A stretch of DNA of 59,356 bases, the filler included, from Candidatus Woesearchaeota archaeon CG1_02_57_44 (GTDB taxonomy: Archaea; Nanobdellota; Nanobdellia; Woesearchaeales; CG1-02-57-44): the NCBI GenBank assembly GCA_001871415.1. It is 3 parts of 3 records of this genome, joined end to end, with 100 filler letters (N's around TTAATTAATTAA, not from the genome) between each part and the next. Parts side by side here need not be neighbours in the genome. Positions count along the whole stretch, not along the records: positions 1 to 26,192 come from MNWW01000011.1; 2 more parts are not named here. The stretch is one strand, 5' to 3'. The position numbers were made by a program. Shown here piece after piece: positions 6,001 through 12,000 of this stretch; position 1 is the stretch's first letter; each line of letters starts with the position of its first letter.

Positions 6001-9000
6001 GCAGCGCACCTTCCTGCCCAGCTGCAGGGCGACCATCGGCGTCGCCGCGGGCAGCGGACGCAGAGAGAAACCGTTCCTGAAGGCAGGACGCAAGCACCAC
6101 GCCATGAAGGCCCGCAACAAGATGTGGCCCACGGTCAGCGGCGCTGCCATGAACGCGCTCAGCCACCCGCTGGGCGGCTCACGATCATCACGCAAAGGAA
6201 GGCCCACGATCGCGCCAAAGAACGCGCCGCCGGGCCGCAAGGTAGGCATGATACGCCCGAGGCATACGGGCAGGAACAAGTGATACTCCCATGGCAAAAG
6301 AAAGCACCTATCGGGGAAAGACCGCAGAAGAGCTCGCAGGAATGAGCCGTGACCAGGTCGTCGCGATGCTCACTGCGCGCGAGCGCCGCGCTGTCAAGCG
6401 TGGCATGAGCGAGCCGGCCAAGAAGCTCTACCGCCGCGTCGCGAAGGGCGAGAGCAATATCAAGACCCATGCCCGCGAGGCGGTCATCCTCCCTGAGCTG
6501 CTTGGCCACACCATCGGTGTGCACAACGGCAAGGAGTTCACGAAGGTCACCATCACCATCGACATGATTGGCTATCGGCTCGGCGAGTTCGCGCTCACGC
6601 GAAGGCGCGTCGGGCACAGCTCTCCAGGAGTAGGCGCGACGAGAAGCAGCAGCGCCATATCGGTGAGGTAAATGGAAACAGCAGTAGCACGCGGCGTCGA
6701 CGTCCCCGTCAGCTTCAAGCACTGCGTGGAGATATCCAATCACCTGCGCGGCAGGAGCGTCGTCTCCGCCAAGCGCATCCTAGAAGAGGCCATCAGCATG
6801 TCGCGCGCGATCCCCTTCACGCGCTTCAACGGCGACGTGGGCCATAAGCCAGGCATCGCCGCTGGACGCTACCCTATCAAGGCCAGCAAAGCCGTGCTCG
6901 CGTTGCTCGAGTCAGCGGAAGCCAATGCCATCCACAAGGGCATGAATGGCGACGCGCTCAAGATAGTGGTCATGGTCGCGAATCTCGCTGCTAGGCCGCA
7001 TCGCCCCGGCAGAAAAAGGCGTGTGCAGCACAAGCGCACCCACCTGCTCGTCGAAGTGGTCGAGGATGAAGAGGTAGCGGCAAAGGCCAGCAAGGCAGCG
7101 CCCAAGCGCGACGACGCCAAGACCAAGAAGGCAGTTGTCAAGGGAGGCAAGGCAGCAGAGAAGAACCCCTCGGTGAAGACTCCCCCAGCGAAGGCGCCAG
7201 CCAAGGTCGTCGATGCTGTTAAGCCTGCTGCCGCGGAGAAGGCAGAGGTCACAGAGAAGGTCGGGGAAGCAGAGAAGGAAAAAACGCCCGTCGCGGCAAA
7301 GAAAGCCACCAAGGACGCGAAGGACACTACCGATACTACGGTCACTACGACCACATCAACCAAACCAGGGAACGCGGATATCGCAAAGACGGGCGCTGAG
7401 AAAGCGCAGGCCGCCCCTGCTGCGAAAGATACGGATACTAAGGACACCAGTGATGCTCAATGATAGAACGCCAGTTCGTCGAGAAGAAACTCAAGGAATT
7501 CGAGGTACAAGAATTCATCGCCGAGAACCTCAAGCGCGTCGGTCACAGTCACACCACGCTCACGCGCACGCCTATGGGCGAGCGCATCGTCATCCACGCC
7601 AGCAAGCCAGGACTTGTTGTCGGACGCAAGGGGCAGAACATCAAGACCTTGACCAAGACGCTCAAGACCCGCTTTAAGCTGGACAACCCACAGATAGAGA
7701 TAGCCGAAGTCGAGAATGGCAACCTTAATCCCACTATCCTCGCTGAGCGCATCGCCAACACGCTTGAGCGCTTCGGCCCTAATCGCTTCAAGGGCATCGG
7801 TCATCGCACCATCGCGGATGTCATGTCCTCAGGCGCCATCGGCATCGAAGTGCTCATCAGCGGCAAGATACCATCCGCCAGGGCACGCAGGTGGCGCTTT
7901 TACCAGGGTTACCTCAAGAAGTCCGGCGATCTCGCGGTCACCGGAGTCCTGAAAGCATATTCCACAGCCAAACTCAAGACCGGCACGGTAGGCATCCAAG
8001 TGCGCATCATGCCGCCAGACCTCGAGCTTCCGGACAAGGTCGAGCTGTTCGACGAGCCAGTCATGGAGACCGAAGGCACGGATGAGGAGCTCATCGCGGA
8101 TGAGAACGATGATCCGATGACCACGGCAACGGCGGATACCAAGTCTGACGGGAAGAAAGATACCAGCGTTCCTGTCGCCAAGCAGACAGCCAAGCCAGCC
8201 GCAGCGAAGCGTCCAGCGACCAGGAAGAAGAAAGCAACGCCAAAGCCGGCAAGCAAGCCGACGCCAAAGGCAGCTGACACAAATGATGCTGCTGGCACTG
8301 CGACTGCGACCAAGGCCGCTGACGCGTCATCGGCATCACCTGGCGATACTGCCCCCCCAGGCAATACTACCCCCCCAGGCAATACTACCCATAACGATAC
8401 AACCACGGACCTGACGGAGGCCTCTGATGAAAGCTAAAGAGCTGCGTCAACTTCAGAGCGATGAGCTGGACAAGATGGTGCGGGACATGCAGGCGGAGCT
8501 CGTGCAGCTGCGAAATCAAGTGAGCCGCGGCACCACGCTCAAGTCCCCGGCGCGCGTTCGCGAACTGCGAAGAGGCATCGCAAGGATAATCACCCTCAAG
8601 CGCGAGCAGGCAGGCGTGAAGGCAACGTTCGATCCTGTCAAGAGAACCCCGAAGAAGGTCGGAACCGCGAAGGCGAAGAAAAAACCACAGGCAATCAAAC
8701 AGAGCAAGAGCGCGCAGAAGAACGAGACTGCATCATCATCAGCGCCCGTATCAACTCCATCATCATCAACAGGCAAGCAGACCGCGGCAGCAAGCCCGGC
8801 CACAACGGAGTGAGCATGCATGAAAAACTACTCGCAGGAGAGATTGTCGGCTGTCCTGTCAAGGTCCTATCCGGTACCCACGCGGGGCACGCAGGCGATG
8901 TCATCGATGAGACCATGCAGCTGCTCATCATCCGCACGTCAGCGGGCGTCCGTCGCGCGCATAAGCGCGGCAGCGTCTTTTCGCTGCGCATCAATGGAGA

Positions 9001-12000
9001 GAACATTACCATCGAAGGTGAATCACTGTGCCTAAGACCCAAGGAACGGACCAAAGCGCTTCTGCAAAGAAGGCCGAGCAGACACAACCCGCTTACGCAG
9101 AGGAGACCATGAGCGCCTCTAAGGCAGCCACTGTCGCCGACACGAACGCGTCGCCTGTCAAGGCAGCGGCGAAGAGCAAGGCCGCGGTAGCTGATGCTCC
9201 TGTCGCTCAGGACGCTGCTACTGATAAGGCGCCAGCAAAACAGACTGCGCCCTCCAAGTCGGCCAAGACCATCAGCGCGACGGATGATGATGCCCCCGCG
9301 CTTCCAGCGACGCTGCACGGCAAGGACTTCGTCGGTCGCGTCGTATCTGCCAAGATGCAGCGCACGGTCACGGTCGAGTGGGACAGGTCTGTATACAATC
9401 GCAAGTATGAGCGGTATAGCCAGCGGCGCAGCCGCGTGCACGCGCGCAATATAGTCAATGCCAAGGAAGGTGACAAGGTCAGGATCCGCGAAAGCCGAAG
9501 CCTCGCCAAGAGTGTCTCCTTTGTCGTGGTAGAGGTGCTCTGATGGAAAGCATCAAGGCCAATGTGACCAAGGCCATCCCTGTCGGCGCGCATATCCCTA
9601 CCTGCGACAACAGCGGCGCGAAGGTCATCAAGGTCTTTGGTGTGCTGCGCAGCAAGACTGTCAAAGGTCGCTATCCCGCGGCAGGCGTCGGTGACATCGT
9701 CATGGCGTCAGTCAAGAAGGGCAGGCCTGACATGCGAAAGCAGGTCGTGCTGGCGGTCATCGTCAGGCAGCGCAAGGAATATCGACGCGTGGACGGCACG
9801 CGCATCAAGTTCGAGGACAACGCGGCAGTCGTGCTCAAGGACAACAAGGGCAACCCCAAAGGGACCATCCTGAAAGGCGCCATCGCCAAGGAAGCCAGCG
9901 AGCGCTGGCCAGCGGTCGCGAAACTCGCGAGCATCGTCGTGTAAGAACCATACGAAAAAGAGCACGAACGCAAGGACGGCAAACAAACGCATCAACATCA
10001 TCGGAAACAACAGCATCACGGGAACAATCATGGCAGACAACAAATGGAGCAGCGCCTGGACGGCGAGCAGCAAGCCCAAGAAGCAGCGGCTCTATGTACG
10101 CCGCGCGCCGTTGCACCGGCAAAGCAAGCTTGTCAGCTGTTCGCTCGCCAAGGATCTTCGCGCAAAGCACGGTCGTCGTACCATACCTATCCGCACGGGA
10201 GACAAGGTCAGGATCATGCGCGGCTCGCATAAGGGCAAGACGCCTGTCGTCGCCAGTGTCAACCGGGCCAAGCGGCGTGTCTACCTGGAAGGCATCCAGG
10301 TCACCAAGAAGGAAGGGACCAAGGTCAATATCCCCTTCGCCATATCCAACCTGCAGATAATCGATGTCAAGGACGCCACGCGCAGGTTCAAGCAGAGCGA
10401 GAAGAAGGATACCGCAGGCCAGAAGACAAAGATACAGAAGGCTGTTGCTCCGACGGGCAAGACCCCTGGCGCAGCAAAAAAAGCGCAGGTCCCTGCAGGA
10501 ACAGCATCAGCAAATCCGATCAAAGGTGATACCAAGTGAAATCACACGCAAAGCGCCTCGCCCTACCGCGCACATGGGCAGTAGCCCGCAAATCCGGCAC
10601 ATTCATTGTCAGGCCCAACCCAGGCGGGCATCCACGCGCTTACAGCCTGAGCATCGCGACATTCCTGCGCGAGTACGCGCACCTGGCGAGCACGCTCAAG
10701 GAAGCACGCCAACTGCTCAACGCCGGAAAGGTCTCTGTCAGCGGCAGGGTGCGCAAGGACTACCAGTATCCGGTCGGCCTCTTTGACGTGGTCAGCATCG
10801 GCGAGACGCATCTGCGACTGGTGCTCGACGTGCACGGTCGTCTCATCACGGTCACTGCGGATCATCCGGAACGCACCATCATGCGCGTCACAGCCAAATC
10901 CATGGTTGAAGATAAGGTGCAGCTCAACTGCGCGGGCGGACGCAATCTCCTGATAGCCAAAGACAACGCGAGCGTCGCCAAGAACTACAAGGTAGGGGAC
11001 GCGCTGCTCGTCACGCTTCCCAGCCAGGATGTCATCGATCACTTCCCGTTCGAGAAAGGCGTCGTCGTCTTCCTCACCGGTGGCAGTCATCCTGGTCAGG
11101 TAGGCACGGTGGAGCAGATAAAAGGCAGGAATGTTGTCTTCAAGCTGCCCAGTGGCGAGATCTTCGCCACCATGCGCCGCTTCGCTATTCCCGTCGGCAA
11201 GACGGAGCCAGCAATCACTGTCACGGCCAAGAAGAACTAATGCATCAATGTATCACACAACCACTCACAGTTGAACCGAAATGAACCATCCTATGAAAAA
11301 CATCCGGATAGAGAAGCTGACGCTGAATGTCGGCGCAGGAAAGAACCAGCAGGTGCTCGAGAAGGGCCTCAAGCTCATCGAGAGCATAGCTGGTGTCCCG
11401 CCGGTCAAGACCATCACGCAAAAGCGCATCCAGGCATGGGGACTTCGTCCTGGTCTACCGATAGGATGCAAGATCACGCTTCGCGGAGAAAAGGCCGCAG
11501 AACTCTTGCCACGCCTGCTCGCGGCCAAAGAGAAGACACTGCGCTCCTCTCAGATGGGGCCTGGCAATGTGAGCTTTGGCATCCACGAATATATCGATGT
11601 CCCTGGTGTCAACTACGACCCTGACATCGGCATCATGGGCTTTGAGGTCTGCGTCACGCTGGAGCGCCCGGGTTACGGCGTCAAGCGCCGCCGCGCACAT
11701 CGCGCGAAGGTCGGCAACAAGCACCTCATCACCAAAGAAGACACAGTCGCATACATGAAAGAAACGTACCAAGTACAGGTGGATGCCTCATGACGGTAAG
11801 CTCCTACAAAAAAGTCGCCAAGCAGCTCAAGACCAAGCCGGCGAAGCTCAAGAAGTTCCTGAAGCACAACTCCCCTAAGGAGCGCTCCACGGGGCTATCC
11901 AAGCGCAAATGCCGCCGCTGCCAGCGCACCGGAGCGCACATCCGCTCCTACGGACTGCACTTGTGCAGGCACTGCTTCCGGGAAATAGCGCCAAGCATAG

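Follow-up and report, generated by a model that had tools for sequence, protein, structure and literature searches.

Why should the ribosomal proteins (r-proteins) of a small groundwater archaeon, Candidatus Woesearchaeota archaeon CG1_02_57_44, carry long low-complexity ends? An earlier note had listed 11 such proteins, with eS24 and uL30 as probable additions, and had viewed the ends as a disordered coat gained by the ribosome of a reduced lineage. Domain calls with Pfam and NCBIfam show that all 13 proteins are present and that each extends beyond its family domain, in frame, by 38-133 aa, the sum over the 13 segments being 1041 aa. The span to which the note assigned them, 6672-10539 of the window (the whole 59,356-nucleotide stretch of DNA that was analysed), contains five of the 13, with segments cut at 133 aa (uL22), 121 aa (uS3), 63 aa (uL29), 62 aa (uS17, N-terminal) and 49 aa (uL24). 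However, eL32 (95 aa), uL30 (72 aa, N-terminal) and eL14 (106 aa) lie further on in the window, making eight there altogether, and uS4 (84 aa), eS24 (57 aa), eL31 (38 aa), eS1 (80 aa) and uL11 (81 aa) are located on other contigs. The features in the window are:

6291..6671, plus strand: uS19, gene of the same operon without a tail, used as control
6672..7463, plus strand: uL22 (263 aa); core 1-130; tail 7062-7460, 133 aa, K/A/T/E/D, net +4, aromatics 0, disordered as judged by composition
7460..8437, plus strand: uS3 (325 aa); C-terminal tail about 8048-8434, acidic at either end with a basic cluster between
8342-8390, plus strand: 18-bp tandem repeat within the uS3 tail
8427..8813, plus strand: uL29 (128 aa); C-terminal tail about 8613-8810, K/A/S/T-rich, net +9
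8816..9112, plus strand: RNase P subunit p29, context gene without a long tail; its stop overlaps the uS17 start
9109..9543, plus strand: uS17 (144 aa from the ATG at 9109); Ala/Lys-rich N-terminal extension about 9109-9312
10030..10539, plus strand: uL24 (169 aa); C-terminal tail 10390-10536, 49 aa, net +8
13063..13662, plus strand: eL32 (199 aa); class-wide extension about 13369-13659
15495..16040, plus strand: uL30 (181 aa); Ala/Lys/Pro N-terminal extension of about 75 aa
15552-15614, plus strand: 21-bp repeat within the uL30 N-terminal extension
19180..19731, plus strand: eL14 (183 aa); C-terminal tail about 19408-19728, Ala/Lys, net +12

The extensions are real. The C-terminal tails are obligatory, being in frame without an earlier stop, and the stop codons of uL22, uS3, uL29 and uL24 overlap the following ORF; at 58% GC, a run of 581 codons without a stop would arise by chance with a probability of about 1e-9. 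The N-terminal extensions of uS17 and uL30 start with ATG at 9109 and 15495, respectively, each overlapping the upstream stop and located behind a purine-rich site. An assembly or frameshift artefact is ruled out by other assemblies with the same sequence: locus L192 matches window positions 39-7335 at 99.99%, locus L193 matches 6798-13267 at 100%, and contigs from runs X3 and X4 span the tails with zero indels. Lengths compare with those of solved archaeal orthologues as follows: uL22 has 263 aa vs 150-156, eL14 has 183 vs 81-103, uS3 has 325 vs 209-229 in most (one has 318), and eL32 has 199 vs 123-161, with forms of 234-241 aa in existence too. This genome is a high-end, not a unique, case of tail load. 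The uS17 extension stands in for the Cys-containing archaeal N-terminus of about 30-35 aa, and the uL30 core is only about 100 aa long owing to an internal deletion; neither uL16 nor eL21 was detected in this genome, which is 82% complete.

Among genomes of the order, tails of at least 30 aa are common in uL22 (41/65) and uS3 (56/65), rare in uL24 (7/56) and uL29 (2/64), and absent from uS19 (0/64) and the C-terminus of uL23 (0/63). A previous survey of 30 loci, with uL22 and uS3 tailed, uS19 without a tail and uL29 short, is reproduced on this larger sample, and so is the peculiarity of the uL29 tail, which exceeds its counterparts in all 64 order genomes (maximum 30 residues beyond the end of the HMM). 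The description of the uL22 and uS3 tails as order-wide holds insofar as both are common in the order. The uL22 tail is indeed order-enriched (3/13, 3/20 and 0/20 genomes in other groups), but the uS3 tail, like the extensions of eL32, eL14 and eL31, is class-wide, and it recurs with its acidic-basic-acidic pattern in three groups (56/65, 12/14 and 19/20 genomes). (Apparent extensions of uL18, uS5 and uS17 relative to HMMs in this survey are, according to the controls, partly ordinary archaeal sequence and were not counted as tails.)

The proposed link to genome reduction fails. Tails of uS3 of at least 30 aa are present in 19/20 larger-genome archaea (1.1-3.6 Mb) of another phylum, that of G100; C-terminal tails of uL22 and eL32 are found in 0/20 of these controls. 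Moreover, the sum of tail lengths correlates positively with genome size in the class (rho +0.36, n=64; +0.19, not significant, within the order), with the qualification that the sampled genomes are mutually related and p-values across them are overstated, and the shortest tails belong to the smallest genomes. Remodelling of the ribosome through genome reduction was therefore rejected, the trait being neither restricted to reduced genomes nor scaling with them.

The composition of the tails is strongly biased. A/K/T/P/D/E/S residues account for 64-96% of each segment, and the summed net charge of the 13 segments is only +22. The label of Lys/Glu/Ala-rich tails is apt for Ala (23%) and Lys (17%), followed here by Thr (13%), but Glu contributes only 5%, the eS1 segment is acidic (28 D/E vs 9 K/R), and 22% of the uL11 residues are hydrophobic. 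With the exception of eS1 and uL11, the A/E/K bias and the depletion of hydrophobic and aromatic residues are those of low-complexity r-protein extensions. Histone-H1-like charge is seen in the net basic tails of eL14, uL30, uL29 and uL24 (+8 to +12) and is absent in uS3, uS4, eS24, eS1 and uL11, which are net acidic. For the order, the earlier estimate of about 30% Lys and 20% Glu is borne out by pooled values of 30% and 17%. Across 8758 tail residues from 60 genomes, the frequencies are 0.30 for K, 0.17 for E, 0.017 for R and 0.002 for F+Y+W, against a neutral expectation of 0.02-0.07 for K and 0.06-0.14 for aromatics, so that Lys lies above and aromatics below it. Third codon positions of tails follow those of the cores (rho 0.83 and 0.92), and synonymous sites change in step with genome GC; even at a genome GC of 58-63%, Lys makes up 12-35% of the tail residues, and GC-rich genomes, this one included, have Ala/Pro in place of Glu/Val/Ile. 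Arg falls to 1.7%, vs 7% in cores. Protection of rRNA from a basic proteome is an unsupported explanation in this case: the median pI of 831 soluble proteins is 6.4, so that there is no particular call for a shield against cationic proteins.

The coat is disordered only in part. Opposite-charge pairs at i+3/i+4 are depleted in uS3 (z -8.7), eL14 (z -3.4) and uL22 (z -2.1), and composition and charge patterning of these three tails are disorder-like; the single-sequence model of uL22 is poor throughout (mean pLDDT 47.6) and uninformative. The tails are mostly disorder-like, whereas the extension of eL32 is predicted to be helical and that of uL11 is probably so.

Charged single alpha-helix (SAH) segments are E/K-rich. 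The eL32 extension resembles them in its E/K pairing at i+3/i+4 (z +10.2, 68 sequences vs 200 shuffles), low Pro+Gly content (3.6%) and continuous, confidently predicted long helix. Unlike the usual SAH, it is joined to an r-protein and capped by a conserved motif. The predicted layout consists of the helix (residues 104-148 in the AlphaFold model, pLDDT 92-97 across residues 101-140), a variable linker and a terminal helix (180-198) carrying the motif [D/E]-K-hydrophobic-hydrophobic-[T/I]-K. The extension, with an interquartile range of 68-79 aa, is present in 56/56 order genomes, 11/12 other genomes of the class and 0/20 genomes of the phylum of G100; in one clade, it spans merely 10-47 aa and lacks the motif. 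The motif pattern was drawn up after viewing a first set of sequences, of which 49/68 contain it (shuffle mean 1.3); in held-out loci, it was found in 25/49 and missed in 24/49 (shuffle mean 0.8, maximum 4 of 500). In the closest pair, pN of the extension equals that of the core (0.06 and 0.07), and in distant pairs, it is above the core (0.25-0.54). It is unlikely that the motif merely reflects the ribosome-binding site of eL19: in 26 strict matches, each of the six positions shows variation among synonymous codons, and the eL32-eL19 gap spans -4 to 43 nt. We also rejected the possibility that the helix patches the internal deletion of uL30 because genomes with a full, 153-aa uL30 possess it as well. 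The best Foldseek matches of eL32 included only ordinary eL32 cores. These findings support, statistically and by structure prediction, the eL32 extension as a conserved structural element of the class. The uL11 extension has a conserved, helical-looking start and is probably a second helical extension, patchily inherited.

Our preferred interpretation, to which we assign a probability of roughly 0.5, is a non-sticky coat under weak selection, which would serve solubility or spacing, combined with one structural helix, that of eL32. The coat would be formed by uL22, uS3, uL29, uS17, uL24, uL30, eL14, uS4, eS24, eL31 and eS1, whose segments appear to be disordered additions to free termini that lengthen and shorten quickly between congeners, with Lys far in excess of Arg, charge nearly balanced and segregated in blocks, and aromatics and most hydrophobics kept out by selection. 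Presumably, these tails are translated and retained on the mature ribosome, where bulk properties rather than sequence would matter: they may act as solubility tags preventing aggregation of basic unassembled r-proteins and as a non-sticky polymer brush over the subunit surface, each single tail being weakly selected and replaceable. The predicted helix, linker and short motif helix of eL32 would form an arm along the 50S surface, with the terminal motif docking on a fixed site, by analogy with the helical L22 and L29 extensions of Mycoplasma.

The strongest competitor, which we consider possible but less probable, is that the tails are tolerated excess: slippage, stop loss and occasional copying from neighbouring genes would lengthen exposed termini without positive function, except in eL32, and purifying selection would merely remove sticky or degron-like residues. 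Composition filtering by itself cannot tell useful from tolerated tails. The very labile lengths are compatible with near-neutrality, differing several-fold inside genera (6 vs 74 aa for uL22 within one genus and 12 vs 117 aa in another case), and lengths co-vary positively across genes (rho 0.36 for uL22-uS3 and 0.42 for uL22-uL24), as under a genome-wide mutational or drift regime. The tandem units of uS3 and uL30 point the same way, as do four substitutions at 8341-8359, inside the uS3 repeat, in one X3 contig (depth 5), the only non-foreign strain differences over 13.7 kb of that run. Exact sharing of at least 24 nt between tails was detected in 4/72 genomes, after two matches caused by an eL34 mis-call were dropped, and no exact shared stretch of at least 15 nt within this genome. 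Against this explanation, the extensions are concentrated on r-proteins, where added residues cost most: low-hydrophobicity termini occur in 15/48 r-proteins, four of which (uL2, uL15, eL15, P1) have ordinary ends, vs 79/1216 other proteins (odds ratio 6.5), and Lys-rich termini in 8/48 vs 16/1216 (odds ratio 15). The 16 non-ribosomal cases show that such ends are not confined to the ribosome, but pure drift would not be expected to favour costly, abundant targets. The persistence of patterned uS3 tails across three groups, the short tails of the smallest genomes and the high Lys content at high GC are also difficult to accommodate. No relative close enough for a proper dN/dS on the tails of this genome was found: all 40 relatives belong to other families, and a metagenome scan added two loci that are near-identical and four with 42-54% identity. 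The comparisons were accordingly made between congeners in other families, and pN of the tails was below pS in 10/10 of them (e.g. 0.20 vs 0.62 in G063/G071), with the caveats that alignment biases pN of low-complexity tails downward and that most pairs have reached saturation in pS.

It is rather unlikely that the tails are histone-H1-like RNA binders whose Lys clusters attach to exposed rRNA or mRNA, assist the folding of rRNA as chaperones during assembly, or anchor ribosomes to DNA or RNA polymerase. Nucleic-acid binding has been proposed for Lys-rich low-complexity regions (LCRs) (PMC6821194), and Mycoplasma extensions are reported to crosslink to other proteins (10.1101/2021.12.18.473270). 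A K/R-cluster pattern occurs in 58/79 uS3 tails, a figure without shuffle control, and four tails are net basic; however, Arg, the usual RNA-binding residue, is nearly excluded, the 13 segments add just +22 charges, and five of them are net acidic.

The protein eL31 is situated near the exit, and with uL22, uL24, uL29 and eL31 all tailed here, a 133-aa chain could presumably reach it. A dedicated disordered collar at the exit tunnel, shielding nascent chains or taking the place of a ribosome-bound chaperone, is nevertheless highly improbable, even though uL22, uL24 and uL29 are proteins of the tunnel and vestibule (PMC13338714): the combination is peculiar to this genome, given the rarity of uL29 and uL24 tails and the absence of uL23 tails in the order, which leaves the exit-tunnel role suggested earlier without specific support, most tails are elsewhere, on both subunits, and the L22, L23 and L29 extensions of M. 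pneumoniae are reported to lie >30 Å from the exit, apparently unable to touch the nascent chain (10.1101/2021.12.18.473270).

Charged r-protein tails are already in print for bacteria and archaea, and the present genome is an extreme case. In M. pneumoniae, 11 of 52 r-proteins, including L22 and L29, are reported to be extended, with solvent-exposed, mostly disordered and in some cases helical (S6, L22, L29) segments whose disruption affects fitness; such extensions are described there as common across bacteria, with elusive function (Xue et al., bioRxiv 10.1101/2021.12.18.473270). The similarity is about a dozen r-proteins with terminal extensions, including proteins around the exit. The differences are that the Mycoplasma extensions are bacterial, have an independent origin and are covered by structure, crosslink and transposon data, and that the set described here contains the archaeal/eukaryotic proteins eL14, eL31, eL32, eS1 and eS24. 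Prokaryotic r-protein LCRs are reported as Ala/Glu/Lys-rich, mostly C-terminal and surface-located, with archaeal S3 and S24 among the commonest carriers (Ntountoumi et al. 2019, PMC6821194). The tails described here are Lys-richer and longer than the average LCR (36 aa), and the r-protein section of that study does not list archaeal uL22, eL32, eL14, eL31 or uL11 or mention this lineage. Mosquito RpS6 and Drosophila L22/L23a have histone-H1-like, fast-evolving Lys/Ala/Glu tails of 100-170 aa, that of mosquito RpS6 remaining on ribosomes (PMC548281), but these are eukaryotic and concern just one or two proteins, not a dozen. The Ala/Lys-rich uS19 extension of Parcubacteria is similarly a lineage-specific tail in a small-genome radiation, although about 25 aa long, in one protein and in CPR ribosomes that are smaller overall (Tsurumaki et al. 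2022, PMC9297842). Our literature search found nothing on Woesearchaeota/Nanoarchaeia r-protein tails or the eL32 extension, which does not establish absence from print, and no DPANN ribosome structure; the rod-like eL32 helix with a fixed end motif seems to be undescribed so far.

Tentatively, and with less confidence than in the preferred interpretation, the eL32 arm of about 45 residues, a uL11 arm and the polymer brush could be read jointly as an undescribed ribosome architecture of the class. The eL32 motif might then dock on a fixed site or recruit a factor, with the arm as the counterpart, in this lineage, of the long helical bridges in eukaryotic r-proteins; the uL11 helical arm might lie at the factor-binding centre; and a total of up to about 1000 Lys-selected, Arg- and aromatic-free residues might determine how far apart ribosomes sit, and how freely they move, in very small cells.

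Charged low-complexity r-protein tails are a known phenomenon, and these archaea provide a natural series in which the same termini range from 0 to 230 residues in relatives of 25-63% GC, with Lys bias and aromatic exclusion constant. Therefore, the proposition that composition, not sequence, matters is testable with grafted and scrambled tails. For a DPANN ribosome map, the eL32 helix and motif amount to a concrete structural prediction, and they could also serve to mark the class. In small-genome archaea, ribosomes are not simply shrunk.

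All thirteen ribosomal proteins named in the earlier note (uL22, uS3, uL29, uS17, uL24, eL32, uL30, eL14, uS4, eS24, eL31, eS1 and uL11) were identified with Pfam or NCBIfam models, and each reaches past its family model. The additional segments comprise 38–133 aa each and 1041 aa in total, are composed of A/K/T/P/D/E/S to 64–96%, contain four aromatic residues in total and carry a summed net charge of +22. The earlier note had located these proteins at 6672–10539, which holds for five of the 13; eight are encoded in the window overall, and the remaining five (uS4, eS24, eL31, eS1 and uL11) map to contigs outside it. 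The genome (1.53 Mb, 82% complete, ~58% GC), three contigs of which make up the window, was previously placed in Woesearchaeales, in agreement with the names of close homologues, and 40 of 40 sampled relatives represent other families of this order. The ribosomal part of the window includes:

3462–19731: archaeal S10-spc ribosomal protein cluster
18702–18959, + strand: eL34-like gene

The tails are real. Six of the window's proteins have C-terminal tails, which together amount to 581 stop-free codons read in frame (chance ~1e-9), four of the window's C-terminal tails overlap the next gene at their ends, and the starts of uS17 (9109) and uL30 (15495) overlap the upstream stop and are preceded by purine-rich sites. 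We infer that the extensions are translated. Two further metagenome contigs, which may share the sampling site, match at 99.99% over 39–7335 and at 100% over 6798–13267. Contigs of four sequencing runs contain no indel in 6291–20000; one contig of run X3, at depth 5, differs by four substitutions at 8341–8359, inside an 18-bp repeat of the uS3 tail, which represent strain variation or assembly error. Compared to solved archaeal orthologues, uL22 (263 aa vs 150–156 aa) and eL14 (183 aa vs 81–103 aa) are much longer; most solved uS3 and eL32 are shorter as well, but one uS3 chain of 318 aa and eL32 chains of 234–241 aa exist. Separately, a 140–245-bp repeat at window 1–99, 26000–26138, 33219–33459 and 33560–33694, which recurs at the ends of at least 17 contigs of this genome, resembles the end of a MITE or IS.

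C-terminal extensions of at least 30 aa past the HMM end were counted in four groups of archaea: the order (n=65; 39 of the above 40, to which 26 genomes were added for breadth or to form congeneric pairs, some of these having long uS3 frames), all 14 listed class genomes outside the order, and two phyla sampled for long contigs, those of G101 (record titled Aenigmatarchaeota; 20 of 26 genomes) and G100 (record titled Methanococcoides; 20 of 41).

Table. Genes with a C-terminal tail of at least 30 aa (order; other class genomes; G101 phylum; G100 phylum)
uL22: 41/65; 3/13; 3/20; 0/20
uS3: 56/65; 12/14; 7/20; 19/20
eL32: 56/56; 11/12; 2/6; 0/20
eL14: 21/25; 9/10; gene not found in the G101 or G100 sample
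uL29: 2/64; 1/13; 1/20; 0/20
uL24: 7/56; 1/12; 3/15; 0/20
uL4: 12/63; 3/12; 0/16; 0/20
uS19, uL14, uS8, uL23: none in any of the four groups

In the sampled genomes, C-terminal tails on uL22 and eL32 are enriched in DPANN. The uS3 and uL22 tails had been described as order-wide, and both are indeed prevalent in the order; the uS3 tail, however, is equally at home in the rest of the class and in the G100 phylum. In a class-wide sample of 30 genomes, with undetected or cut-off loci left out, tails were found on eL31 (21/29) and uS4 (15/27), both counts including this genome, and on uL11 (10/27) and eS1 (3/23). Summed over 11 genes, the tails reach 505 residues here compared to an order median of 306 (range 152–562, n=52), which ranks this genome fourth of 64; it comes first only once its N-terminal tails and that of its eL14 are added, a measure biased its way. 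The uL29 tail is, as previously claimed, peculiar to this genome (71 residues vs at most 30 elsewhere in the order), and so is the N-terminal tail of uS17; a long uL30 N-terminus occurs in 1 of 51 order genomes. Because the uS3 tail, there acidic, is the norm in archaea with larger genomes, and larger genomes have larger tail sums (rho +0.36, n=64; +0.19 inside the order), the trait is not a product of genome reduction, contrary to the original proposal. The acidic uS3 tails of the G100 phylum (loci L198–L217) often close with small conserved modules that are rich in Trp/His or resemble Cys/His zinc fingers, and eL32 carries long N-terminal additions in 10/20 of these genomes. The uS3 of loci L144 and L186, from 1.2-Mb genomes with records titled Methanosarcinales, is 54–63% identical to that of this genome (38% for L162), and these two therefore look like members of this class.

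The composition of the tails is constrained. Tail residues pooled from 60 genomes (n=8758) comprise 30% Lys, 17% Glu, 10% Ala, 1.7% Arg and 0.2% aromatics, whereas random codons would yield 2–7% Lys and 6–14% aromatics. Third positions in the tails correlate with those in the cores, at four-fold sites (rho 0.83) as well as in K/E/Q codons (rho 0.92), and tail Ala and Pro increase with GC (rho 0.73 and 0.57), which accounts for the Ala-heavy tails of this GC-rich genome (Ala 23%, Lys 17%, Thr 13%, Glu 5%). Lysine without arginine or aromatics, at near-balanced charge, is a recipe for a soluble, non-sticky chain. Given this composition, bulk action is the most likely mode for the disordered tails, a reading to which we assign a probability of roughly 0.5: they would serve as solubility tags on unassembled ribosomal proteins and as a brush on the ribosomal subunits.

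The length of the tails is labile, diverging widely even between congeners (6/74 and 117/12 for uL22), and in 10 congeneric comparisons tail pN (0.20–0.48) was below pS yet above core pN (0.07–0.27), with pS mostly saturated and pN flattered by low-complexity alignment. The uS3 tails show an acidic-basic-acidic profile, and short tandem units are seen in uS3 and uL30 tails. Exact stretches of at least 24 nt were common to two tails in 4/72 genomes, this genome having none between its own tails. That the tails are tolerated excess is the foremost alternative to bulk action, if a less probable one.

Among our own gene calls (1539 genes), low-hydrophobicity ends (35-residue termini of which no more than 14.5% is hydrophobic and that contain one aromatic or none) are present in 15/48 ribosomal proteins of at least 80 aa, four of these 15 being ordinary ends, compared to 79/1216 other proteins (odds ratio 6.5); Lys-rich ends are present in 8/48 and 16/1216, respectively. 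Comparable ends occur outside the ribosome, on DnaK, several H1-like proteins and a fused primase, so ribosomal proteins are over-represented among the carriers without being the only ones. The primase and a set of small H1/Hc2-like proteins lie at:

window 1331–3079, + strand: PriS-PriL-like fused primase, weak NCBIfam matches to both subunits
L360:317–544 (− strand), L361:194–538 (+ strand), and contigs C1:4749–5153 and C54:10775–11215 of this genome (G000): small histone-H1/Hc2-like proteins, by composition

The primase, a kind of fusion known in DPANN, has a Lys/Gly/Glu-rich C-terminal tail. The small H1/Hc2-like proteins consist mostly of Lys/Ala/Val repeats and had no convincing match in Pfam or NCBIfam. 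H1-like tails are reported to be retained on mosquito ribosomal proteins (PMC548281); that the tails studied here are likewise H1-like RNA binders seems improbable.

In Mycoplasma pneumoniae, 11 of 52 ribosomal proteins are reported to be extended by solvent-exposed segments, mostly disordered but helical on S6, L22 and L29; those in the tunnel region lie >30 A from the exit, and such extensions are described as common across bacteria (10.1101/2021.12.18.473270). An exit-tunnel collar, as the earlier note's mention of the tunnel might suggest, is very improbable for the tails in question. A shield against cationic proteins has no special support: positive proteins are reported to adhere to ribosomes (PMC5726854), but the median pI of this proteome is 6.4.

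Nor do the extensions form the uniform disordered coat first envisaged. The eS1 tail is acidic, and the uL11 extension is all-or-none (59–115 aa in 10/27, otherwise at most 8), with a common start and a first half that looks helical from its sequence. The uS17 extension stands where a Cys-containing N-terminus was, which 41/70 relatives keep in strict form, and uL30 (window 15495–16040) has lost ~50 internal residues, so that the net gain in these two proteins is below what the tails suggest. Through an internal deletion, the uL30 core measures 100 aa here and 109–141 aa in order genomes, compared to 150–153 aa in six control sequences; the full 153 aa is retained in nine class genomes outside the order.

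The clearest departure is eL32, with an extension narrow in length (IQR 68–79 aa) and modelled as helical: a helix at 104–148 (pLDDT 92–97 over 101–140) is followed by a linker of low confidence and, at 180–198, by a terminal helix (pLDDT ~70). Opposite-charge pairs at i+3/i+4 are in excess in eL32 (z +10.2) as opposed to uS3 (−8.7), eL14 (−3.4) and uL22 (−2.1). A terminal motif, [D/E]-K-hydrophobic-hydrophobic-[T/I]-K, is present in 49/68 extensions (shuffles 1.3), with variable synonymous codons, and is absent from the tails of uL22 (0/45), uS3 (0/69) and eL14 (0/31). Because the pattern was derived from these 68 extensions, it was retested on loci chosen by uL14 (61 genes once two duplicates and three control loci were dropped), where it was found in 25/49 extensions of at least 30 aa (shuffles 0.8, maximum 4 of 500); one clade in this set has only short, motif-free extensions. 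Extension and cores are conserved to a similar degree in the closest pair (pN 0.06 vs 0.07), unlike in distant pairs. Ordinary eL32 cores make up the best hits of a Foldseek search. The eL32 of genome G048 (L087:9136–9804, + strand) contains, within its extension, a segment which we take to be helix-hairpin-helix-like, with the terminal motif retained behind it; at the other end, the N-terminus of eL32 here (window 13063–13120) is ~16–19 residues shorter than in most relatives.

Ala/Glu/Lys low-complexity regions are on record for archaeal S3, S24, L10 and L12 (PMC6821194), and an Ala/Lys tail for uS19 of Parcubacteria (PMC9297842). On the tails of this class or the eL32 arm, we found nothing in the literature covered, which did not extend to the Melnikov 2018 survey of ribosomal protein diversity or to supplements. 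Ribosomal protein tails as such have thus already been described, and the set reported here is a variant of that known habit, the eL32 arm being the part most worth following.
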